A stretch of DNA of 64,000 bases from an uncultured Lentisphaeraceae bacterium (GTDB lineage Bacteria; Verrucomicrobiota; Kiritimatiellia; RFP12; UBA1067): positions 21,111 to 85,110 of the forward strand of contig CAYZYQ010000002.1 of the NCBI GenBank assembly GCA_964482645.1, written 5' to 3'. The position numbers were made by a program, and so were the translations under genes. Within the stretch, counting starts at the first letter, position 1, and each line of letters starts with the position of its first letter. The notes below the pieces were generated by a model. It was not told where the DNA came from, ran no database searches, and worked only from the letters and a program-made list of their open reading frames with translations. Below are positions 5,153 through 26,368 of the stretch, one piece after another.

Positions 5153-6079
5153 ATGAAGGTCGTGTCGCTATTCAGCGGAGCCGGCGGACTGGATCTGGGC
5201 TTTCAGTGGGCGGGGCATGAGGTCGTATGGGCGAACGACCTCTATGTCGACGCCGTGGCGTCGTATCGCGCCAATGTGGGCGGCCACATTGTCTGTAAAG
5301 ACATTGCCGAGATTCCAAGCTCGGACATTCCGGACGGCGACATTGTTATTGGCGGATTCCCCTGTCAGGGATTCTCGGTCGCCAATACAAAGCGGCACGA
5401 ATCTGATTCGCGCAACAAACTCTACCTTCAGCTCCTCCGTGTCGTGAAGGACAAACGGCCCCGCTTCTTCCTTGCGGAAAACGTGAAGGGAATTCTGCAT
5501 TTTGCCGGCGGTAAAGTGTACGAGCAGATTGTGGCGGACATGAAAGCGCTTGGTTATCATGTCAAGAGCCGTTTGTTCAATGTTGCAGACTATGGTGTTC
5601 CGCAAAGGCGCGAGCGTGTCATTTTCGTCGGTGTGCGAGACGACGTGGCGTTTGAGTACGAGTTTCCAACTGCGACGCACGATAAGCACGGCGACAATGG
5701 ACTTCCGCAATGGATTGGGGTGGGGGAAGCGTTGGCGCAGATTGCCGATCCCGACGGACAAAACGATTTGCCCAACCACGTCTATTCAAAGTACAAGCTC
5801 AATTTCAACGGTTACATCGGCCATCGTCCGCTCGATCCTGCCAAGCCCGCACCGACGGTGACGGCGCGTGGGGACGACAAGGGGGGCGTGGTGATTCTGC
5901 CGCATCCAAACGGGTTGCGACGGATGACGGGGCGTGAACTTGCGACCGTGCAGAGTTTTCCGTTGGATTTCGAGTTCAAGGGACCGTTGTCGTCCGTCTA
6001 TCGCCAAATTGGGAATGCCGTTCCGCCTAGATTCGCCGAGGCGCTGGCGAGACAGTTCAACGGGTTTGACGAGAATTAG
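5153..6079 (+). CDS. DNA (cytosine-5)-methyltransferase (M1)
   Basis: Motif I FSGAGGLDLGF, motif IV GGFPCQGFS, motif VI ENVKGIL, motif VIII QRRERVIFVG, motif IX TGRELATVQSFP, motif X GNAVPP. Confidence 0.9.
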   Translation: MKVVSLFSGAGGLDLGFQWAGHEVVWANDLYVDAVASYRANVGGHIVCKDIAEIPSSDIPDGDIVIGGFPCQGFSVANTKRHESDSRNKLYLQLLRVVKDKRPRFFLAENVKGILHFAGGKVYEQIVADMKALGYHVKSRLFNVADYGVPQRRERVIFVGVRDDVAFEYEFPTATHDKHGDNGLPQWIGVGEALAQIADPDGQNDLPNHVYSKYKLNFNGYIGHRPLDPAKPAPTVTARGDDKGGVVILPHPNGLRRMTGRELATVQSFPLDFEFKGPLSSVYRQIGNAVPPRFAEALARQFNGFDEN

Positions 6080-6101
6080 TAGAAAACATTGGAGAAGGCA
6101 G

Positions 6102-7094
6102 ATGCGATATCTTTTCAAAAGATGTGGGCACCAGGAACTGGGTAGTATGGATGCCGATATGCGTCCGAAACGCGGACAGTATCTGCTGATGAAGATGACG
6201 CCGGAGGTGTTGTCGTTCTTTCCGCCACTTTCCATTACGCAGAAGAACGACTATCGGCTTGTTCCGTTTTTCCCGCTTTATTCTAGGACGAAGGTCTATT
6301 GCCGCTTTGTCTACCACAACGATAAGTTTCATGAGTCCACTGCGACGCAGCCACGAAACGAGTACCGTCTTTATCTGAACAGGGAAGTGCAGGGCGGCGA
6401 GTTGCGGTTTGTTGAGGGCGGGATTGTCGTGTTCCGTCTCGTGGACGAATCTGATTTCAACAGAGGAATGTTCCTTGATTACGCGGGCCCACAGGACGGG
6501 GAGCTTTACAGGGTATATGATGAACGACTACGAGCGGGCAGGCTTGATTCCGTAGGGAATTACGGTGTGTGTGACGGAGCGCTCAAGGATTTTGAATGTC
6601 GTGTCGCAAACGTCTCTAGCGAAACTTCAGATGTCGTGGTCTCGGAGACAGACATTGAGTACATCTCCAAGAACAGGGACGACGAGGCGGCGTTGTTCAA
6701 CGAAGTTTCGTTTCGTGATTTTGTGATGGTTGGCTACCGGAGGAAGTGCGCCGTCACGGGAACATCCATTGAACATGGTTCGTTGTGTAATCTTGAAACC
6801 GCCCATATCCATCCAAAGGCGCATGGTGGTACTTTCCTGCCGAGTAACGGGATGATGCTTTGCCGTGATTTCCACTGGGCGTTTGACCATGGCTTCTTTA
6901 CCCTTTCGGACGATTTGGTAGTCATCGTTTCAAAGAAGGTTTCAAGCGAAATGCTTGCTCCATACGACGGCAAGCGAATTTTTGTCCCTTCCAATCCATT
7001 TTTCCGTCCTGACATTGCAAGCGTGAGATGGCATCGCGAACATGTGTTTGAGTGCTTCGGGCAGATTCGGGCAATGAAAGTGGAACGCACATGA
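6102..7094 (+). CDS. HNH-family nuclease, putative restriction endonuclease with an N-terminal DNA-recognition-like domain
   Basis: ATG 6102 is preceded by GGAGAAGG, inside ORF 5934..7094. The C-terminal CAVTGTS...LETAHIHPKAHGG...NGMMLCRDFHWAFDHGFF is an HNH (HNH_2-like) motif. The gene sits between methyltransferase genes, and its stop overlaps the M2 start (ATGA). Confidence 0.75.
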   Translation: MRYLFKRCGHQELGSMDADMRPKRGQYLLMKMTPEVLSFFPPLSITQKNDYRLVPFFPLYSRTKVYCRFVYHNDKFHESTATQPRNEYRLYLNREVQGGELRFVEGGIVVFRLVDESDFNRGMFLDYAGPQDGELYRVYDERLRAGRLDSVGNYGVCDGALKDFECRVANVSSETSDVVVSETDIEYISKNRDDEAALFNEVSFRDFVMVGYRRKCAVTGTSIEHGSLCNLETAHIHPKAHGGTFLPSNGMMLCRDFHWAFDHGFFTLSDDLVVIVSKKVSSEMLAPYDGKRIFVPSNPFFRPDIASVRWHREHVFECFGQIRAMKVERT

Positions 7095-8152
7095 ACGTAA
7101 TTGATCTGTTTTCCGGATGCGGCGGGTTGTCCAAGGGATTCATGGATGCCGGATGCAGAGTGCTGCTTGGAGCGGATGTCGATCAGGCTGCTCTTGATTC
7201 GTTTGAAAAAAACCATCCGGGTTCGATTGGTCTTAGGAGAAGTCTTGCCGAAGAGGCAACGTTCGATAGAATGCGCGAAATCATCGGCGACAGAAAAGTG
7301 GATTTGATTGTCGGCGGACCGCCGTGCCAGGGTTTTTCACTTACCGGCCCGAGAAACTTCGATGATGAGCGCAACAAGCTGTATCTGTCGTATATCAAGG
7401 CCGTCGAGATGTTCAGACCGAAGGGATTTCTCATCGAAAACGTTCCTGGCATGGCAACGTTGTACAAAGGTATGGTAAAAGATGAAATCTTGAAACGGTT
7501 TACGAGGCTTGGCTACAATATTGATTGCAGAATTTTGTGCGCTGCAGACTATGGCGTACCTCAGACTCGCCGCCGTCTTGTATTCATTGGTGTTCGCAAA
7601 GAACTTAATGCCGTCTCGTTTCCGCGGCCTCTTCTTGAGCCGAGCGAATACGTCACGAGCCGCGAGGCCATCGATGACCTCCCGCCATTAACTGATTGTC
7701 TCGGTGAGGAAGTTTCGCGATACGACCGTCCGCCGCGGACGCAATACCAAAAACTCATGCGCGGCAGTTGTACGATACTGTCGAATCACACCGCAACCGC
7801 GCACAAGGATTTCGTCAAGGAAGTGATTGCCCAAGTCCCAGAGGGCGGAAATTACAAAGACCTCCCAAAAGGAGTTGGCGAACATAGGCGGTTTCATATG
7901 GCTTGGACAAGATGTGACGGACACAAGCCATCTCGCACGATTGATACAGGGCATCGCAATTATTTCCACTACGAATATAATCGGATTCCGACCGTTCGCG
8001 AATGCGCCAGACTACAGTCGTTTCCAGATGACTTTGTCTTCATCGGCACACGGACGCAACAGTATCGACAGGTTGGTAACGCGGTTCCACCTTTGCTGGG
8101 ATTCGTCCTTGCAAAACATCTGATGGGACTCGTGGAGGGGCGGAATGCCTAA
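7091..8152 (+). CDS. DNA (cytosine-5)-methyltransferase (M2)
   Basis: FSGCGGLSKGF, GGPPCQGFS, ENVPGM, QTRRRLVFIG, TVRECARLQSFPDDF, GNAVPP. Start is ATG 7091 inside ORF 7052..8152. Confidence 0.9.
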   Translation: MNVIDLFSGCGGLSKGFMDAGCRVLLGADVDQAALDSFEKNHPGSIGLRRSLAEEATFDRMREIIGDRKVDLIVGGPPCQGFSLTGPRNFDDERNKLYLSYIKAVEMFRPKGFLIENVPGMATLYKGMVKDEILKRFTRLGYNIDCRILCAADYGVPQTRRRLVFIGVRKELNAVSFPRPLLEPSEYVTSREAIDDLPPLTDCLGEEVSRYDRPPRTQYQKLMRGSCTILSNHTATAHKDFVKEVIAQVPEGGNYKDLPKGVGEHRRFHMAWTRCDGHKPSRTIDTGHRNYFHYEYNRIPTVRECARLQSFPDDFVFIGTRTQQYRQVGNAVPPLLGFVLAKHLMGLVEGRNA

Positions 8153-9380
8153 ACTCCGCACAATAGACCTTTTCGCCGGGTGTGGCGGACTGATGGACGG
8201 TTTTATGCAAAGCGGTCGTTTCGATACGCTTGCCTGTGTGGAGTGGGAGGAAGCACCATGCCGAAATCTCGTGAACCGCTTGAAAACGAAATGGGGACAC
8301 GCAAACGCCGAGAGGGAAGTCCTGCGCTTCGACATTCAGCGAACGGATGAACTGTTCTATGGCTACGACGATCCGAAGTTCGGACGTGGCGACGGCCTTG
8401 ACAAGCTCGTTGGCGGGATGAAGATAGATGTCATTATCGGCGGGCCGCCTTGTCAGGCCTATTCGCTTGCGGGTAGAATCCGCGACGAGCATGGTATGCG
8501 CGATGACTATCGTAACTATCTGTTCGAGAGCTATCTTGAAGTCGTTAAGCGTTACCAACCAGACTTCTTTCTGTTCGAGAACGTAATTGGGATGTTGTCG
8601 GCGGCGCCGGACGGAAGACCGATAACGAAAAAGATACGAGCAAAGTTTTCAGATGCGGGTTATGTCGTTCTCCCAGATTTTAGGGATGCGGTTTTTTCGC
8701 TTTCAGACTACGGCATCCCCCAAAATCGTCGTCGCATTATCATTTTGGGCGTTCGCGAGGAAAGTTTTCCGAATACGTCCGCAGATATCATTCGAGATTT
8801 CTATGGACGTATCATGCCATCATACCGTCAGCCGAAACGAACGGTTGAAGAGGCGATTGGCGATTTGCCCAAATTGATTCCGACGATAGAGAGGGGGAAG
8901 GTGGTCTATCATCGTCAAGGCGAACGAATCGTTCCCAACCATTTCCCGAGAAAGCACAGCGTTCGCGATGTCAAGGTGTTTAAGTTGCTTACCGAAGACA
9001 TCGAGCAAGGTCGATTTGAGTATACGTCGATTGATCGTTTGAAAAAACTGTATACGGAAGTCACGGGTAAAACAAGCAACATTCACAAGTACTACGTTCT
9101 CCGCCGTGATCAGCAGAGCAATACAATTCCGGCTCATCTGCATAAAGACGGATTTCGACACATCCATCCTGATTCAGAGCAATGCAGGACATTGACGGTA
9201 CGCGAAGCCGCTAGGCTACAAACTTTTGACGACGATTATGAGTTTTATGGAAGTATGGGCGAACAATACAAAATGATTGGAAACGCTGTGCCGCCTGCGT
9301 TTGCAAAAATTCTTGCGCGGGCGATATGTGAAATCCATATGAAGTATTGTCCGTGGAAGATACACGATCTAAACACCTAA
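8145..9380 (+). CDS. DNA (cytosine-5)-methyltransferase (M3)
   Basis: FAGCGGLMDGF, GGPPCQAYSLAGR, ENVIGMLS, QNRRRIIILG, TVREAARLQTFDDDY, GNAVPP. There is an 8-nt overlap with M2. Confidence 0.9.
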   Translation: MPKLRTIDLFAGCGGLMDGFMQSGRFDTLACVEWEEAPCRNLVNRLKTKWGHANAEREVLRFDIQRTDELFYGYDDPKFGRGDGLDKLVGGMKIDVIIGGPPCQAYSLAGRIRDEHGMRDDYRNYLFESYLEVVKRYQPDFFLFENVIGMLSAAPDGRPITKKIRAKFSDAGYVVLPDFRDAVFSLSDYGIPQNRRRIIILGVREESFPNTSADIIRDFYGRIMPSYRQPKRTVEEAIGDLPKLIPTIERGKVVYHRQGERIVPNHFPRKHSVRDVKVFKLLTEDIEQGRFEYTSIDRLKKLYTEVTGKTSNIHKYYVLRRDQQSNTIPAHLHKDGFRHIHPDSEQCRTLTVREAARLQTFDDDYEFYGSMGEQYKMIGNAVPPAFAKILARAICEIHMKYCPWKIHDLNT

Positions 9381-20385: not shown

Positions 20386-21024
20386 CTACCGCCGCGCCAC
20401 GAGGGCGGCAGCGTCCGCCGCGAGTTGGCGGATGCGGGGCCAGTCGTCGTTCGCGAGCGCGTCCTTGGGGACGAGCCACGTGCCGCCGCAGGCGACGATT
20501 TCCGGGACGGCCAGATAGTCGGACACGTTCGAGAGGTTCACGCCGCCCGTTGGCATGAACGTGATGCCCGTGAAGCGGAACGCGCCGAGCAAGTTCTTGA
20601 TCATCTTCACGCCGCCGGCCGCTTCCGCCGGAAAGAACTTGACCATCGGGACGCCCGCCGTGAGCGCCTGCGAAAGTTCACTCGCCGTGGCGATGCCCGG
20701 CACGAACGGCAACCCCGCTTCCTGTGCGGCCGCCACGACCACGGGGTCGAAACCCGGCGCCACGCCGAACTCGGCGCCGGCGGCTTTCGCGTCGCGTACC
20801 ATCTGCGGCGTGAGGAGGGTGCCCGCGCCCAGAATCGCGCCCGGAACGTCCTTCTTGATTGCGGCAATCGCGGGGGCGGCGGCGGCTGTGCGGAACGTCA
20901 CTTCGAGGACGTTCAGGCCACCCGCGACGAGCGCCTGAGCCATGGGTACGGCCTTTGCCACGTCGTCGATGACGATTACGGGGACGACCCCGACTTTCTT
21001 CAGCGTTTCAACTACGTCAATCAT
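20386..21024 (-). CDS. eda: 2-dehydro-3-deoxyphosphogluconate / 4-hydroxy-2-oxoglutarate aldolase
   Basis: ATG 21024 is preceded by AGAGGAGAAAAGAGA. The sequence VVPVIVIDD...LEVTFRT...GAGTLL...GIATASE...VKFFPAEAAGG...MPTGGV is canonical Eda. Confidence 0.85.
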   Translation of the reverse strand: MIDVVETLKKVGVVPVIVIDDVAKAVPMAQALVAGGLNVLEVTFRTAAAAPAIAAIKKDVPGAILGAGTLLTPQMVRDAKAAGAEFGVAPGFDPVVVAAAQEAGLPFVPGIATASELSQALTAGVPMVKFFPAEAAGGVKMIKNLLGAFRFTGITFMPTGGVNLSNVSDYLAVPEIVACGGTWLVPKDALANDDWPRIRQLAADAAALVARR

Positions 21025-21102
21025 TTCTCTTTTCTCCTCTTGAAAAATCGTGTTCTGTAAAATGTTTTGATGCGACAGTGCAACATCGAAATCCACGCTC
21101 AT

Positions 21103-21111
21103 AGTATATCA
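21103..21111 (-). promoter_or_regulatory. extended -10 element TGaTATACT for eda (minus strand); its TGa overlaps the ASCH stop codon
   Basis: The reverse complement of 21103-21111 reads TGATATACT. It lies about 78 nt upstream of the eda ATG. Confidence 0.4.
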
Positions 21112-21564
21112 CAGGAAGCGCGTTTCAATTTCGTTGGACAGATCCGGCGGCAACCGCCACATCCCCACGTTGCCGCGACAGGGAATGGGCGCGGGCAACC
21201 GCCGAACGTTCGAGAGAATCCACCAGTTGGCGTAGCCCTCGTTCCAGATGCGGCATTCGACGGCGAGCGCACCCGTGTCAGGAATGCAACTTGTCGCCGC
21301 ATAATCCATCGTAGCGACAAGGCACCCTGGCCACGACTTCACCTCGTCCCATGTGAGAAGGTGCGCCATAGCCGCCGGATGGCAATGTCCTGCAAGCCAC
21401 GCGACGAGATTGTCGTATTCGGCCTTGCAGAACTTCTTGGATACGCTCATCGCGCACCGCCCCTTCGCTGGAATCGGCAGGGCGCTGCGGTTCTCCACCC
21501 GCTTCAGTCCCGACATGATCAGAACCGCGTATGCACCAGTACAGGTAAAGGCATTGACGATCAT
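21109..21564 (-). CDS. ASCH-domain (PUA-like) protein
   Basis: AYAVLIMSGLKRVENRSALPIPAKGRCAM resembles the ASCH signature (xxG.K..E.R, then a short beta-strand core). 151 aa. It is the last gene of the minus-strand RM island operon. Confidence 0.5.
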   Translation of the reverse strand: MIVNAFTCTGAYAVLIMSGLKRVENRSALPIPAKGRCAMSVSKKFCKAEYDNLVAWLAGHCHPAAMAHLLTWDEVKSWPGCLVATMDYAATSCIPDTGALAVECRIWNEGYANWWILSNVRRLPAPIPCRGNVGMWRLPPDLSNEIETRFL

Positions 21565-21638
21565 TGCAATTTACCCTAAGTAATTTCTGTGCCCGGTGCA
21601 GTCAAACGTGTTGTGTAGGCTATCATTTACCATTGTCA

Positions 21639-21779
21639 TTATCGAAATCGCCTGTCGCATACTCGATACCACCAACCCAAAGAGAACAACCTCTTACGCA
21701 CAAGAATCTTAAGCAAAGTGCCTTTGCCGCGAATCTTACTCATGTAAGCATGGTGCCGCTCTAGGTTGAATGTGTCCAT
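21639..21779 (-). pseudogene. vsr: remnant of a very-short-patch repair endonuclease (vsr) N-terminus
   Basis: My translation gives MDTFNLERHHAYMSKIRGKGTLLKILVRKRLFSLGWWYRVCDRRFR*. The block MSKIR.K.T....LVRK.L.SLG..YRV matches the conserved Vsr N-terminal block. The ORF stops where LPGxPD and the catalytic core should follow. Confidence 0.35.
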
Positions 21780-21790
21780 GTCGAAATATT

Positions 21791-22513
21791 TTATTTCTCA
21801 AATGGGATTTGTCCGCTTCCTCTAATCGAAACGTGATGCCTTGTGCCGCAACCGATGACAACATGATCGTCGAGAGGGATGCCGACAAGATTCCCCGTTT
21901 CAATGAGGCGCTTGGTTTCGGCCAAGTCTTCGTTGCTGGGTGTTGCATCTCCGCTCGGATGTGTGTGTGCTACAATTACGGATGCCGCGCCAAGGCGTAT
22001 CGCCTGACGGAAAATATCTCTGGGATGAAGCGGCGTAGCATCAAGAACTCCTCTGAATACCAATACAGGTTCGCACAAAAGGCGCCCTTGGGTGTCGAGA
22101 TAGAGCGCAAACACGTTTTCCTGCTTCTCGTCGATTCCGACTGATAAAACCTGCCGCACAACATCGTCTGAAGACACGATCACACGTTTGAATGACCGTT
22201 GGGAAGTTCTGACATTGCGCTTTACAAGGGCAAACGCCGCAGCAAGCTGGACGGCGGCAACCTTTCCGACACCGGGAACTTTGGCTGCGACAATCTGCTG
22301 CCATGTCGCATCGACAAGGTTTGCCGCGCTGCCAAAATGCTTGATCAGCCTGTTGGCGAGATCGATTGCGCTCGACCCTTTTTGACCGGTACGGATGAGT
22401 ATCGCCAACAACATCGCGTCCGGCATCTCCCTGACCGGATCAGCCGAACGCATAAACACCTCGCGAGGGCGAGATTCTGGGGGCAAGTCCTTGATTTTGA
22501 GTGTTTCAGCCAT
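21791..22513 (-). CDS. radC: RadC-like JAB/MPN domain protein
   Basis: The N-terminal part reads IKDLPPESRPRE...MPDAMLLAILIRTGQKGSSAIDLANRL. It also contains GVGKVAAVQLAAAFAL, and the JAB motif is VAHTHPSGDATPSNED. Confidence 0.85.
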   Translation of the reverse strand: MAETLKIKDLPPESRPREVFMRSADPVREMPDAMLLAILIRTGQKGSSAIDLANRLIKHFGSAANLVDATWQQIVAAKVPGVGKVAAVQLAAAFALVKRNVRTSQRSFKRVIVSSDDVVRQVLSVGIDEKQENVFALYLDTQGRLLCEPVLVFRGVLDATPLHPRDIFRQAIRLGAASVIVAHTHPSGDATPSNEDLAETKRLIETGNLVGIPLDDHVVIGCGTRHHVSIRGSGQIPFEK

Positions 22514-23618
22514 CGTCCTTCATGCGGGCATAACACGCTTTTACAGTTTTGGAAGGTTTGCCGGCAGCCCTCTTGATATAGATGCCATTATCGGACGGTG
22601 AGTATCTGCACCTTTGCTCAAACACAAAGAATGGTTGTCGAATTGTTGGAGGCTCGGGCGATGGCGTGAAAGAATCAGTTGGGGATGGACTCTTCACGAA
22701 TGGATCTTTTGCATCGGCCCTTATTATCGCTCGCCCGACGAACTCGCCCAGTTTCACGGGCACAGCGTTGCCGATGATTTGTTCCACCTCCGACTTGGCT
22801 CCAACCATCACCCACTCTGCCGGAAATGTTTGAATGAGGCTTCGCTCTTTTGTTGTAAGGGGGCGAAGGTTCTTTGTGGTTACTGGTGCGGCATCGCCGG
22901 GATGCCCAGGATAGCCACTTGGAATCGGGCGATTCACACCTCTTACAGTTGGGCTTGGTTCGTCAATGCTGAAAATACCCCGCCGCGCATAACTGCGGGG
23001 ATGCCGATAATAAAAATCAATGTCGATGGAATTACCGAGATAATCGCGGATTGTCATCGGCTTGTCGGACTGCATTTCCTTGTAAATGTCTGTAAGAGAA
23101 ATCGATGGCTCTTTCAATGAGCCGACAACAACGACGCGCTTTCGTTTTTGAGGCGTCCCACACAATGATGCATCGAGAACCGCGATCGTTAGATGGTATC
23201 CCGCATCTGCAAACAGATTCAATGCTTTTTGGTAGATGTTGGCTTTGATGGCACGGTCAACGTTCTCCATGATAAAAAGTTGCGGTCGTATCTTGCACAC
23301 TATTTGGGCATACGCCGTCGTAAGTTCCGCACGACCACCACTCTCGTCACGTTTGCCCGCAGATGAAAAATCCTGACAGGGCGGTCCACCTACAATCACA
23401 GCCGGTTTCCATTTGCTGATTCGCTCAACAGAGGACTCGACATCCGAGAGATCCTGACGATACGCGGAATGTCCCGTGATGTTCTGATTGTAGAAGTTTA
23501 TGGCGGGCTGCCACCAGTCAAATGCGGCGACGACATCGAAGCCTGCATTTTGCAGTCCTTGCGACAAGCCGCCGCCACCGCAGAATAGATCCACCGTTCT
23601 AAACTTTTTCATCGTCAT
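22506..23618 (-). CDS. DNA (cytosine-5)-methyltransferase (M4)
   Basis: The motifs present are DLFCGGGGLSQG, GGPPCQDFSSAGK, ENVDRA, QKRKRVVVVG, TTKERSLIQTFP and GNAVP. The start is ATG 23618 or 23612, which overlaps the 3' end of the endonuclease gene. Confidence 0.85.
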   Translation of the reverse strand: MTMKKFRTVDLFCGGGGLSQGLQNAGFDVVAAFDWWQPAINFYNQNITGHSAYRQDLSDVESSVERISKWKPAVIVGGPPCQDFSSAGKRDESGGRAELTTAYAQIVCKIRPQLFIMENVDRAIKANIYQKALNLFADAGYHLTIAVLDASLCGTPQKRKRVVVVGSLKEPSISLTDIYKEMQSDKPMTIRDYLGNSIDIDFYYRHPRSYARRGIFSIDEPSPTVRGVNRPIPSGYPGHPGDAAPVTTKNLRPLTTKERSLIQTFPAEWVMVGAKSEVEQIIGNAVPVKLGEFVGRAIIRADAKDPFVKSPSPTDSFTPSPEPPTIRQPFFVFEQRCRYSPSDNGIYIKRAAGKPSKTVKACYARMKDDG

Positions 23619-24687
23619 CGAAAATATCCTTTGAGAAGAAGAGTATTGCGTCAAAACGGCGTTCAGGACTCAAGAACTTATGTCCGCCACCAAGTACGAT
23701 CTTCTTGATTTCGTCTCTTTTGACGATTGGTTTCGTCAGCCTGTCACAGGTCATGAATTGATGTGTCTGCGCTCCACGATAAGCGAATTCCTTGTCACCT
23801 TGATTGCCGAACAGCATGGCATCATAAATAGGAATCTGAAACACTCGCCCTTGTGTCACGAATTCGTACAGGAAACGCACAAGTCTCAATGCGGCCCTTT
23901 GCGGACGAGATATTTCATTTCCCATGTCGAGGCACGATGTATGCATCAAACGCGAAAGTGCGAAATCACTCCACACGAACACATCAAGGCAATTGTCGGC
24001 AAGAACAGGACTTTTACCTTTTGTTTTCCAAACTGGTTGTATCACAAGCGGCTTCTGAATCGCCTCATATTCAAGTAGAAACCTGTCAAGCGCCGCAAAA
24101 ATCGCTTCGCGTTTCGGACGCATCTCATAGACGCTACTCCAGTCACGGATATTACCGCATACCGGCAAGAACAACTTTTTTATGGACTCACACTGCTCTG
24201 CATTCAGCCGTGAGGCGATGCCCAATGCCACATAGCGCATGGTTGCAGAGCGTACAACAATTTCCGAGCCATATTCGCTTTCAGACAGAGACGAAGTCCC
24301 ATTGTCAGGCAATGTTGTCAGCTTTATTTCAAGTGGAGTCAAATACCGACCTGTAGCTTCTTCGGTTATAACTAGATCAATCTTCTCCATTGCCTCATGA
24401 ACAAGCGAACGATAAGGATCAAATGGAACCTCAAATAGAAACTTCAATTTGTCATTTGGCAGACTTGTACCGAAAACCAAGTCAAACGGAATTTCAGATA
24501 TCTGTGGCTTGCCGGCCGTCACTGAAATGTAGTTTGCGGCGTGTTTGGCATCCCTCATGTAACAACATAGCGCGGCTGGAAATGTGTTGTTGAATTGATT
24601 TTTACCCCAACAATCAGGATCGGCAAAGTTCCTATTTGAATTTTTAAGGCCGTACAAGCCAGGCTTTTCGACAGTCGTGTTCATCAT
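23599..24687 (-). CDS. type II restriction endonuclease (N-terminus recalls the HindVP family; unverified)
   Basis: 362 aa, lying immediately upstream of and overlapping M4. The N-terminus PGLYGLKNSNRNFADPDCWGKNQFNNTFPAALCCYM resembles, from memory, HindVP-family endonucleases. AT-richer codon usage. Confidence 0.6.
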   Translation of the reverse strand: MMNTTVEKPGLYGLKNSNRNFADPDCWGKNQFNNTFPAALCCYMRDAKHAANYISVTAGKPQISEIPFDLVFGTSLPNDKLKFLFEVPFDPYRSLVHEAMEKIDLVITEEATGRYLTPLEIKLTTLPDNGTSSLSESEYGSEIVVRSATMRYVALGIASRLNAEQCESIKKLFLPVCGNIRDWSSVYEMRPKREAIFAALDRFLLEYEAIQKPLVIQPVWKTKGKSPVLADNCLDVFVWSDFALSRLMHTSCLDMGNEISRPQRAALRLVRFLYEFVTQGRVFQIPIYDAMLFGNQGDKEFAYRGAQTHQFMTCDRLTKPIVKRDEIKKIVLGGGHKFLSPERRFDAILFFSKDIFDDDEKV

Positions 24688-24913
24688 GTCTTACCTTTCT
24701 TTTGCCGTAGGGATTATGAATTCTGCCATGCCTGTTTCTTGATTATTGAATTCGGTATGGTTCGGACGCCTTATTGCCATTGTCGACACCACAAACATGT
24801 TACCGTTTGGAGCGTCAACACAACCCAATCCGCACGAACGTCGTGCGTATCTGCATCTTACTTCATCCTGTCTCCTTGCTGGCATGGATCCGTCCTATCG
24901 CTTCCAAGCCGCT

Positions 24914-24922
24914 ATTATACCA
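24914..24922 (-). promoter_or_regulatory. extended -10 element TGgTATAAT driving the RM island operon (minus strand)
   Basis: The reverse complement of 24914-24922 reads TGGTATAAT. A leader of about 220 nt follows before the endonuclease ATG (24687). Confidence 0.45.
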
Positions 24923-24971
24923 AAACATTGACATCCGTTCGGCGTGGATTTCCCCTCAATGAACTTTCCTC

Positions 24972-25007
24972 CCGCACCGCCGCATTTATATAAATGCGGC
25001 GGTGCGG
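24972..25007. repeat. 36-bp perfect palindrome CCGCACCGCCGCATTTATA|TAAATGCGGCGGTGCGG
   Basis: Read directly. GC-rich arms flank an AT core. It lies in the divergent region between the RM island promoter and the DUF4349 gene. Confidence 0.9.
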
Positions 25008-25265
25008 AAAAAGCGTGTGAACATCCGCGACTGATGGGAACGACCGTAATAAGGAAACGACCTGTGCTTTTCCATGGACGCCGCCTTTTGCGAATTCCAT
25101 CTCCCGCAGACAGTTAATCGAGCTTCCGAAGTCGTGTCTAAGTTTTCGAAGTCGCGCCTAACCAATGACATCTTGCGTTCGATCTGCGGATTCGCTACAC
25201 TGTGTGACACGGTTCTCGTTCGGTTTGCGAGGAGTTGTCTTCTACAATGATTCAAGGAGGTTTGT

Positions 25266-26180
25266 ATGGAAAAACTGAAGGCTGGGACAGTATTTCGTTT
25301 TGTGCCGATGGCTTTTGCGATGGCCTTGTCGTTTTGCGCCGCGTGTTCGCGTTCTGATGTGGACGCTCCGCGTGTGGAAGTGGCAGACGTATGCTACGCC
25401 GCAGCGCCGGAAGCGAATGAAGTGAAGAATGAGGCCTCCATGGCGTTGGATGTCGCCTCTGCGATGGAGACGGATCGAGCGAACGCGGCGCGGGGGTTCG
25501 TGCAGCAGCTTGTCAGGACGGGAAGTGTTTCCCTAGAGGTTCGCGACATGGATGTTGCGCAACGGGAGATTGGCGCGTGGGCGAAGCGTTTTGGCGGATA
25601 CGTCGAGGAATCGAGTGTCGAGACCACTTCCGGAAGCGTCACCGCGCGTATTCCTACCGCCAGTTTCGAGAAGGCGATGGAGGAGGTGGGGGCTGTCGGG
25701 GACGTGAAGTCGCAGTCTTTGAGCGTCGAGGACGTCTCCGAGCGTTTTTACGACCTGAGGACGCGGCTTGAGACGAAGCGCGTCATGCGCGAACGACTGA
25801 CGAACTATCTTGCGCAGGCGAAGTCCGTCAAGGACATGGTCCAGATAGAGCGCGAGCTGAACTCCGTCGTAAGCGACCTTGAAAGCATGGAAAGGCGGAT
25901 GAAGAGGCTTTCCGCGCAGATAAGCCGATCGACGATTCGCGTGGACTATCGTCTGCCGTATCGCGCCGATCCGCGTGGTGGCAGTTTCAAGTGGCCTGAC
26001 ATCGGCGACAACGCGCGGCGTTTCGCCGTCAACGTCGTGGACTTCATGGTGCTTGCGACGGAATTCATGCTTTACGCTGTCGTCTGCGGTATCCCCGTCC
26101 TGGCCGTGGCGGCGTTCTCCTTTTGGCTGCTCTTCGGCAAGGTCGGTCTTCTGAAGCGGATTTTCAGACGGCTCAAGTGA
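25266..26180 (+). CDS. DUF4349-like lipoprotein
   Basis: The lipobox-like sequence is MALSFCAAC. The central coiled region is ERFYDLRTRLETKRVMRERLTNYL...IERELNSVVSDLESMERRMKRL. Two C-terminal TM helices complete the DUF4349 layout. Confidence 0.6.
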   Translation: MEKLKAGTVFRFVPMAFAMALSFCAACSRSDVDAPRVEVADVCYAAAPEANEVKNEASMALDVASAMETDRANAARGFVQQLVRTGSVSLEVRDMDVAQREIGAWAKRFGGYVEESSVETTSGSVTARIPTASFEKAMEEVGAVGDVKSQSLSVEDVSERFYDLRTRLETKRVMRERLTNYLAQAKSVKDMVQIERELNSVVSDLESMERRMKRLSAQISRSTIRVDYRLPYRADPRGGSFKWPDIGDNARRFAVNVVDFMVLATEFMLYAVVCGIPVLAVAAFSFWLLFGKVGLLKRIFRRLK

Positions 26181-26278
26181 TTCATGCCGGTGGTCGTGGG
26201 CAACGGTGTCGCCGCGGCCTCCAGTCAACGGATGCGTGGCGCGTGGGTAAAATCCGCGGCCATGGAGATGTGTTTTTT

Positions 26279-26287
26279 TGGTATAAT
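26279..26287 (+). promoter_or_regulatory. extended -10 element TGgTATAAT upstream of purL
   Basis: tttttTGgTATAATgcc was read directly. It lies 81 nt upstream of ATG 26369. Confidence 0.4.
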
Positions 26288-26368
26288 GCCGAATTGCGTC
26301 CGAAGTCTCAAAGGAAGAACTGGCACGTCGCGCCGGGACGCACTGATTTAAACTGAAAGGTCTGACTG

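Follow-up and report, generated by a model that had tools for sequence, protein, structure and literature searches.

A Type II restriction-modification cassette accompanied by RadC and an ASCH-fold gene in an uncultured Lentisphaeraceae bacterium

We analyzed a stretch of 64,000 nucleotides (hereafter the window) from an uncultured Lentisphaeraceae bacterium (GTDB lineage Bacteria; Verrucomicrobiota; Kiritimatiellia; RFP12; UBA1067), which corresponds to positions 21,111 to 85,110 on the forward strand of contig CAYZYQ010000002.1 in GenBank assembly GCA_964482645.1. Its minus strand carries, in this order, an extended -10 box, a leader, a restriction endonuclease (R), a C5-cytosine (m5C) DNA methyltransferase (M), RadC, a stump of vsr and an open reading frame (ORF) with an ASCH fold, followed by eda (Table 1). 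The restriction-modification (RM) pair itself is ordinary. What is new here are the recurrent RadC and ASCH companions, a fusion of ASCH with JAB and a C-terminal tail on methyltransferases beside radC, and these offer a practical route to the function of RadC. RadC is among the most widespread bacterial proteins of still unknown function, a near-universal family whose name derives from a mutation that was later placed in another gene. Our preferred reading of the locus, to which we give about an even chance, is that a horizontally acquired Type II RM cassette, with radC and the vsr stump having come along, is lodged between a conserved promoter/leader and ASCH.

In addition to the Pfam assignments in Table 1, R and M matched the PADLOC profiles REase_II (E = 1.7e-95) and MTase_II (E = 2.7e-129), respectively, and the motifs FCGGGG, GPPCQ, ENV, QKRKR and GNAVP can be read in the translation of M. 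The start of M at 23618 overlaps the stop of R by 20 nucleotides (nt), or by 14 nt if the second ATG at 23612 is used, and M and RadC overlap by 8 nt (ATGGCTGA). The initial annotation had named these elements, and its identifications are borne out: the extended -10 box and the leader were found by direct reading, the endonuclease covers the full RE_HindVP profile, the m5C methyltransferase (called M4 there, overlapping the endonuclease by 14-20 nt) was recovered by PF00145 and by reading the sequence, and the RadC that overlaps it has both the UPF0758_N and the RadC JAB domain. The decayed vsr fragment and the ASCH gene were likewise recovered, the former by a partial match to the Vsr profile and the latter by its fold and its GxKxxExR motif, though Pfam misses the gene. 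GC content rises along the unit, from 0.45 in R through 0.50 in M, 0.53 in RadC and 0.60 in ASCH to 0.65 in eda (host background about 0.65), in agreement with the earlier remark that R, M and RadC are AT-richer and ASCH nearer to host composition. The window was also correctly described as free of integrases and flanking direct repeats, and no tRNA gene or other recombinase was found in it. The five ORFs can be taken together as a single unit on the minus strand: their overlaps, the lack of a terminator and the way ASCH abuts whatever cargo precedes it in relatives are consistent with one transcript.

Table 1. Coordinates of the features of the minus-strand unit and its surroundings in the window
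Feature	Coordinates	Strand	Remarks
Perfect 36-bp palindrome, CCGCACCGCCGCATTTAT joined to ATAAATGCGGCGGTGCGG	24972..25007	.	Some 50 bp before the -10 box
Extended -10 promoter box TGGTATAAT	24914..24922	-	Read directly; box and flanks are the same in L017
Leader of about 220 nt (226 nt from box to ATG of R)	24688..24913	-	Non-coding
R, Type II restriction endonuclease, HindVP family, 362 amino acids (aa)	23599..24687	-	PF09519, E = 1.2e-109, profile positions 1-332 of 332
M, C5-cytosine DNA methyltransferase, 370 aa	22506..23618	-	PF00145, E = 1.9e-63
C-terminal extension of M beyond the methyltransferase domain	22509..22721	-	Contains FVFEQRCRY and KTVKACY (22550-22530)
RadC, 240 aa	21791..22513	-	N-terminal HhH (UPF0758_N) and JAB with intact Zn motif HTHPSGDATPSNED
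vsr pseudogene stump, 46 codons	21639..21779	-	N-terminal third only; PF03852 positions 1-44 of 74, E = 2.5e-6
ASCH-fold protein, 151 aa	21109..21564	-	Invariant Y12, G19, K21, E24, N25, R26; last gene in the conserved frame
eda promoter-like site, TTGAAA-16-TACTAT or TGATATACT	21101..21128	-	Overlaps the ASCH stop

The RadC of the window matched PF20582 (E = 4.5e-16) and PF04002 (E = 1.1e-31), and scored above the cut-off of TIGR00608 (168.5, cut-off 133.85). Its score against PRK00024, the NCBIfam equivalog for housekeeping RadC, is 178.5 with a cut-off of 180, and homologues at 68-82% identity were found in housekeeping contexts. It thus appears to be essentially the ordinary HhH-JAB RadC of the lineage. 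PADLOC gave only faint generic JAB matches for it.

The terminal ORF had no match in Pfam and NCBIfam at E <= 0.01, including PF04266, and a Pfam label was found on none of its 316 homologues. In an alignment of 32 members, G19-x-K21-x-x-E24-N25-R26 is invariant and Y12 nearly so. The family profile aligned with the ASCH domain of TRIP4/ASC-1 in PDB over its whole length (E = 1e-3). Furthermore, the AlphaFold2 (AF2) model of the protein reached a predicted local distance difference test score (pLDDT) of 93.8, and Foldseek search with this model retrieved the TRIP4 ASCH domain (including its complexes with double-stranded DNA), EOLA1 and ZmASCH (E = 3e-9, TM-score 0.70-0.78). ASCH enzymes employ Lys and Glu from the GxKxxExR motif, and there are several that bind DNA; in TthASCH the catalytic residues are Y14, K23, E26 and R28, with Lys and Glu being essential (bioRxiv 10.64898/2026.02.27.708502). 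The spacing of Tyr, Lys, Glu and Arg in the ORF of the window is the same as in TthASCH. The ORF is therefore an ASCH domain. The clade is narrow, with 25 clusters (50% identity) of E below 1e-30 among 1.84 billion representatives. Judged by record titles, it is limited to gut and rumen metagenome-assembled genomes (MAGs) labelled Lentisphaeraceae, Kiritimatiellia or Verrucomicrobia, at least 8 of which hold two copies.

A neighbourhood survey, set beforehand as the test that could refute the association, found that RM linkage recurs in other genomes for both RadC and ASCH. The related loci compared with the window are given L-numbers below, and P0129 is a RadC protein from these relatives. 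The block comprising R, M and RadC (24703-21825) is 82-83.5% identical in nucleotides to L095, L096 and L119. P0129, an identical RadC protein that is 89% identical to that of the window, stands behind three cargos: HindVP plus m5C, m5C-BpuJI-m5C, or HNH plus two m5C methyltransferases; in the latter two, homology to the window begins at the ATG of radC. Other RadC homologues stand behind PLD plus Dam-like plus N4/N6, Eco29kI plus m5C and AccI plus N6 systems. Altogether, in all six sampled contexts of homologues at 68-89% identity, RadC directly follows an RM methyltransferase, the endonucleases being HindVP, BpuJI, HNH, PLD, Eco29kI and AccI. Scanning of JGI metagenomes showed a methyltransferase ORF abutting the ATG of radC in 15 of 25 informative loci, and the 8-nt stop/start overlap seen in the window is shared by 11 of these 15 junctions. 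Counting both sides, an RM cassette lies directly beside radC in about 20 of the 25 sampled loci (about 80%) of this gut and rumen Lentisphaerae-Kiritimatiellia lineage, and in a neighbour-joining tree the clade of the window's own RadC is entirely RM-linked.

Similarly, members of the ASCH clade are always the last co-directional gene behind a variable RM or defence cargo. Same-strand methyltransferases of the m5C type were found upstream of ASCH at 28 of 51 loci, whereas the downstream count is 0 of 42 (P-value = 7e-9). The gene immediately upstream (position -1) represents at least nine endonuclease families, including EcoRII, MvaI/BcnI, EcoO109I, LlaJI, NgoBV, HpaII and BsuBI/PstI, or alternatively SIR2, SMODS or DUF2357, while the gene at position -2 is PF00145 in 18 cases. 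The cargo and ASCH, or ASCH fused with RadC, mostly overlap or lie 0-30 nt apart. In L023, L026 and L074, as in the window, the gene immediately before ASCH is radC.

At 24 of the 61 loci with a complete ASCH (about 40%), ASCH and JAB are fused into one protein of 273-317 aa. The JAB motif HNHPSGDxxPSxxD is intact, and the catalytic residues of both halves are invariant. When the fusion was used as query against the protein collection, at least 120 clusters (90% identity) matched it over 66% or more of its length, nearly all of these over 96% or more. Their annotation goes no further than PF04002 or 'JAB domain-containing protein'. The presence of JAB correlates with the presence of an m5C methyltransferase at ASCH loci (odds ratio 4.7, P-value = 0.012), and at loci devoid of such a methyltransferase the fusions stand behind N4/N6 or N6 methyltransferases, a PLD nuclease, or a DUF3791/DUF3990 pair. 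The idea that the two partners belong to m5C RM pairs, put forward in the initial annotation, therefore holds for the recurrent linkage to RM genes and fails for the restriction to m5C, as N4/N6 and N6 methyltransferases take the same position. In the AF2 model of an ASCH-RadC fusion, the ASCH half had pLDDT below 50, too low for inter-domain geometry or a fold search. ASCH brings a reader-type fold, and its partner is JAB, encoded by a separate gene in the window; nuclease activity of the JAB domain is only a prediction (PMC3239186). Our literature search found no description of an ASCH partner, and PADLOC returned no match for ASCH or the ASCH-RadC fusion.

Methyltransferases adjacent to radC also share a C-terminal feature. 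They end in a basic extension with the pattern (L/F)x(L/F)E(K/R/Q)R, followed by KS[VI]KA[RK]Y a few residues before the stop, and M of the window accordingly ends in FVFEQRCRY followed by KPSKTVKACYARMKDDG and the stop. By Pfam assignment, the tail occurs on three unrelated methyltransferase families (PF00145, PF01555 and PF02384/PF07669), and no Pfam model covers it. Of 22 distinct methyltransferases adjacent to radC, 19 have the core motif, as against 5 of the 64 others (P-value = 1e-11 as first classified and 2e-18 after reclassification), a comparison weakened by the retrieval of all loci through RadC or ASCH homology, which makes the control methyltransferases a biased sample. The five other carriers are the window's own locus and four methyltransferases from cassettes just downstream of radC. 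The codons of the motif vary synonymously, which points to selection on the peptide.

Comparison with two relatives delimits the imported segment. L016 has the same eda/GH20 flank, with 90.7% nucleotide identity across ASCH-eda-GH20; between the leader and ASCH it holds two m5C methyltransferases and an LlaJI-type endonuclease, and it becomes homologous to the window again at 21562, two bases into the ATG of ASCH. A piece of the leader (24852-24804) lies upstream of this cargo. L017, at a different chromosomal site, has the palindrome, the promoter and the leader (25009-24781, 83%), then a remnant of 100 codons, and then ASCH (90%). The remnant (1648-1950) ends in APIYLKGGELIGFRRG before its stop, the same C-terminus as that of the 780-aa LlaJI-type endonuclease of L016, so L017 is a deletion derivative that keeps the scar of a lost RM cargo. 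From the limits of homology in both loci, the imported low-GC segment spans approximately 24780-21565. The promoter/leader and ASCH are thus a conserved frame whose contents are exchanged among related genomes. Of the five-gene island described earlier, the gene identities and overlaps stand, while ASCH has to be taken out of the imported part as the resident 3' gene of the frame. Swapping was also seen in a slot between Hepar_II_III and Peptidase_M14, where either a NotI-type RM system or DUF3791/DUF3990 precedes the same ASCH-RadC fusion gene (3060-4405 in L106 and 1165-3778 in L110); the DUF3791-DUF3990 pair may be a defence or toxin-antitoxin module. No conserved DNA motif was found before ASCH across 60 loci (information content about 0 in the 80 nt before the start), nor was there a recurrent recombinase cluster across 61 ASCH loci. 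These results, with the missing flanking repeats in the window, speak against an integron-like or site-specific cassette platform, and homologous recombination is the simplest reading of the exchange.

The 5' part of the frame is conserved as non-coding DNA. The leader portion 24913-24781 is 83-86% conserved in nucleotides in L017 and L016, both of which have different cargo. A 64-codon ORF within the leader (24885-24691) was considered as a controller or leader peptide and rejected: its substitutions relative to L017 number 10, 7 and 9 at the three codon positions, and the missing third-position bias indicates no coding selection. No C-protein-type helix-turn-helix (HTH) controller gene was found upstream of R in the window, where the conserved non-coding leader takes its place; HTH_26 genes are present in relatives L095-L103, and a controller-like HTH_26 gene starts the cassette in L095-L101. 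The extended -10 motif TTTTGGTATAAT also occurs upstream of purL (26276-26296, plus strand) and upstream of RM-free radC in L123 and L125, which suggests that it is the standard strong promoter form of the lineage. When 20900-25400 was scanned with Rfam, all matches were chance ones below threshold, with the palindrome at their centre, and no family was assigned to the leader; exact-pattern search for the promoter/leader in JGI metagenomes gave no match.

As for the age of the cassette, the HindVP family name, from which alone the specificity of R was predicted, suggests GRCGYC. This sequence is not depleted in the window (226 sites, with 203 +/- 13 expected). If GRCGYC is the specificity, methylated sites would occur every 280 bp or so, and the acquisition would probably be recent.

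The vsr stump records an older arrangement. By its sequence the ORF is a pseudogene: it ends just ahead of the catalytic Asp of the PDIV motif present in the full-length Vsr of L014, and it scores 17.9 against TIGR00632 with a cut-off of 97.85. It is homologous to the Vsr of L014 and L024, and the stretch covering RadC and the stump (22514-21649) aligns colinearly with L115 and L116, where a full-length Vsr comes after RadC. An intact vsr stands at the equivalent position in L014, L024, L112, L115 and L116. In L014/L022, L116 and L141, further defence genes come after RadC-Vsr, and an ASCH of the window's clade follows 3-5 kb later; in L014/L022 the intervening genes encode PDC-M11A (a PADLOC candidate), an AAA+ ATPase and a TIR protein. 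The window's arrangement of RadC, truncated vsr and ASCH looks like a deletion derivative of this longer layout as seen in L014, L116 and L141, and a deletion from about codon 46 of vsr to just before ASCH would give the present structure.

With these genes, a working model can be proposed for our preferred reading. R would cleave unmethylated sites, and M would protect the same sites. RadC, with a DNA-binding HhH domain and a Zn-dependent JAB hydrolase domain, would be coupled to M, possibly through the methyltransferase tail, and ASCH, a PUA-like barrel with the GKER set of Tyr, Lys, Glu and Arg and a fold like the dsDNA-binding domain of TRIP4, would be a second DNA- or cytosine-directed module. 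The two would form a helper that processes DNA or DNA-bound protein whatever the specificity of the cassette, and that makes carriage or use of the RM system cheaper or more effective. Vsr would formerly have added T:G repair and has since decayed. In short, RadC and ASCH are probably DNA-processing helpers independent of cassette specificity, a function that we infer. A stronger version, which we hold only tentatively and consider rather doubtful, makes RadC a dedicated partner of the methyltransferase; three methyltransferase families would then have gained a common docking or substrate tail, and the JAB of sister lineages would use a catalytically competent ASCH in place of HhH. In a variant of this version, ASCH and JAB would strip base or protein adducts off DNA and let restriction and methylation proceed. 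An explanation specific to m5C, such as repair of DNA-protein crosslinks or of 3-methylcytosine, was also considered and is weakened by the N4/N6 and N6 methyltransferases that stand beside RadC and before the fusion.

Several observations weigh against a functional tie between the RM cassette and its companions. Housekeeping genes, e.g., recA-LMWPc, Peptidase_U32, GpsA and EamA, lie upstream of radC in 10 of the 25 JGI loci, although 5 of these 10 have a low-GC R-M pair immediately downstream of radC. RadC proteins with and without an upstream RM cassette are interleaved in the neighbour-joining tree. ASCH and ASCH-RadC also stand behind cargo other than RM systems (CBASS-like, SIR2, pAgo and DUF3791/DUF3990) and sometimes behind housekeeping genes, and the first RM island of the window (5153-9380, plus strand) is devoid of RadC, ASCH and Vsr, with no tail on any of its three methyltransferases. 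RadC has been argued to lack the groove for a ubiquitin tail (PMC5512222), which weakens the idea of RadC as a peptidase acting on the methyltransferase tail. In addition, generic scans of the unit counted promoter-like and terminator-like sites at the level expected from shuffled sequences; such scans are uninformative, and an internal promoter is neither supported nor refuted by them. Given the interleaved tree and the housekeeping neighbours, an insertion hotspot fits as well as functional coupling. In this main rival explanation, which we judge unlikely though serious, radC and ASCH are resident anchors with no role in RM, and defence cassettes are swapped alongside them by homologous recombination. 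It would account for the breaks of homology exactly at the start codons of ASCH and RadC, for the identical P0129 behind three different cargos, for cargo on either side of radC, for ASCH genes preceded by cargo other than RM systems and for the near-host GC content of ASCH, and conserved genes around variable defence payloads are a known pattern (PMC12458937). However, insertion alone leaves unexplained why methyltransferases of unrelated families next to radC have in common a tail whose protein sequence is conserved, why ASCH and JAB have been fused repeatedly and why the same 8-nt overlap recurs at most junctions. It also gives no account of an ASCH clade that is multi-copy per genome and found in varied contexts, always 3' of and co-directional with its cargo.

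Two other explanations are less likely than such a hotspot. One of them treats ASCH and RadC as a Type IV-like module, in which ASCH reads a modified base in foreign DNA and RadC's JAB domain serves as the nuclease, the module merely sharing an island or operon with the Type II RM system. A PUA-like reader with a predicted nuclease is the classic Type IV architecture, both active-site motifs are intact in the fusion, which is found behind non-RM defence cargo and at times at loci free of RM genes, and PDC-M11, a candidate defence system in the same islands, includes other ASCH proteins. We nevertheless consider it improbable: no JAB domain has so far been demonstrated to act as a nuclease, a JAB partner is missing from about half of the ASCH loci (the relative L016 among them), the RadC of the window is of the near-housekeeping HhH type and groups with radC in housekeeping contexts, PADLOC recognizes no such system, and the methyltransferase tail is given no reason. 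The other explanation, modelled on the RadC/ArdB 'moron' modules of Enterobacteria, holds that RadC (and ASCH) serve as backbone or anti-restriction genes of a mobile element carrying the RM cargo. In L095 and L096 the R-M-RadC block indeed lies beside a large serine recombinase and DUF2924, ParB and HTH genes are nearby in L097 and L098, and RadC/ArdB modules have been described at the end opposite to the integrase (PMC12458937). Yet the window holds no recombinase, repeat or tRNA gene, DNA and protein searches of plasmid and phage collections matched nothing except for a single distant ASCH from an Arthrobacter phage, RadC shows translational coupling to the methyltransferase and does not belong to a separate early module, and many radC loci have plain chromosomal contexts, so that we find this explanation very improbable.

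Comparison with known systems places the preferred reading, of an imported RM cassette with RadC and ASCH as helpers, among several partial parallels. As in m5C RM systems of the dcm-vsr type, a methyltransferase and an endonuclease are followed in the same operon by a specificity-independent 'damage-control' accessory gene; however, vsr is dead in the window, and the persisting RadC and ASCH, which are not known as components of RM systems, are companions of N4/N6 and N6 methyltransferases as well. The RadC/ArdB anti-restriction modules (PMC12458937) and the polyvalent RadC of conjugative elements (PMC5512222) resemble the locus in having a constant RadC-family JAB beside a variable defence payload. 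These modules have a short JAB-only RadC, ArdB/KlcA and toxin-antitoxin genes on integrase-bounded elements, whereas the window has a full HhH-JAB RadC translationally coupled to a methyltransferase and no ArdB, integrase or repeats. The ASCH-JAB fusion is comparable to SRA/EVE-HNH and EVE-McrB enzymes, since it joins a PUA-superfamily barrel to a predicted nucleic-acid-processing domain in defence neighbourhoods, but its reader is an ASCH with intact catalytic Lys and Glu, its JAB has no proven nuclease activity, and the two are separate genes in the window. YqfB, TthASCH, EOLA1 and the TRIP4 ASCH domain are N4-acetylcytidine amidohydrolases, some of them DNA-binding, and share fold and motif spacing with the window's ASCH; in contrast to them, its clade is missed by the Pfam ASCH model, has extra invariant Trp and Cys residues, and occurs in an RM context and in RadC fusions that have not been described. 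Defence hotspots and C-protein RM cassettes likewise show variable cargo between conserved flanks, with a controller-like HTH_26 gene in relatives of our locus, but the window has no controller gene, and RadC and ASCH at its 3' flank are themselves mobile, multi-copy and domain-fused.

A related candidate defence system is PDC-M11, which consists of PDC-M11A (about 493 aa) and the small ASCH protein PDC-M11B. It likewise is a gene pair with an ASCH member and shares these islands, where it comes next after RadC(-Vsr) in L014 and L095-L099. It differs in that the window has no PDC-M11A and its ASCH does not match PDC-M11B (hhalign probability 12%); PDC-M11 models matched neither the ASCH nor the RadC of the window nor the fusion, whereas L095 and L096 have both components. 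In the relatives, PDC-M11 genes directly after RadC(-Vsr) were located at 6806-8287 in L095, 8287-8706 in L096 and 3984-5462 in L014. The PDC-M11A neighbour had no sequence match in PDB and only a weak EVE match in Pfam; by eye it has a PIN-like N-terminus and a GNAT-like middle. If this acetyltransferase-like reading of PDC-M11A holds, it would hint at a writer/eraser pair with the ASCH amidohydrolase-type protein for an N4-acyl mark.

For RadC, the locus and its relatives provide three genomic handles, namely the near-constant association with RM systems in one lineage, the methyltransferase tail, and the repeated joining of JAB to an ASCH clade that lacks annotation. Should the coupling prove functional, Type II RM systems acquire a new layer of accessories, and the hundreds of ASCH-JAB proteins labelled 'JAB domain-containing protein' have half of their architecture missed by databases. 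If RadC is truly a partner of the methyltransferase, this would be the first concrete functional context for the RadC family and a new three-part RM architecture of R, M, and RadC and/or ASCH. If only a hotspot is involved, the locus still shows how RM cargo flanked by a conserved promoter/leader and a conserved 3' gene is swapped in uncultured gut bacteria of the Planctomycetes-Verrucomicrobia-Chlamydiae (PVC) group.

At the 3' end of the unit, the initial annotation had placed the ASCH stop against the eda promoter, and this is what the sequence gives: the TGA at 21111-21109 forms the TG of the TGATATACT -10-like box. The longest ORF of eda starts at 21102, within its own promoter-like box. 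The true start is probably Met27 at 21024, after the ribosome-binding site GGAGAA, and gene callers give a product of 212 aa in identical contigs. The ASCH-eda spacer is 92% conserved in L016.

At the 5' end, the perfect palindrome upstream of the promoter occurs once in the window (0 expected by chance). Possible roles are those of an operator, of a bidirectional terminator or of an element like repetitive extragenic palindromes (REP), and it might also cause assembly breaks. Many metagenome contigs terminate within it. In L017 two copies (662-694 and 1293-1329) flank a gene for an ArsR-type HTH regulator, which is divergent from the same promoter. The conserved leader also contains a small hairpin (24845-24822, CGCACG-loop-CGTGCG), the stem of which is kept in L017 with a different loop (n = 2 sequences).

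The first RM island of the window comprises three m5C methyltransferase genes (5153-6079, 7052-8152 and 8145-9380) and an HNH_2 endonuclease-like gene at 5934-7094. The 64 kb thus contain four m5C methyltransferases and only a dead vsr, which bears on the capacity for T:G repair.

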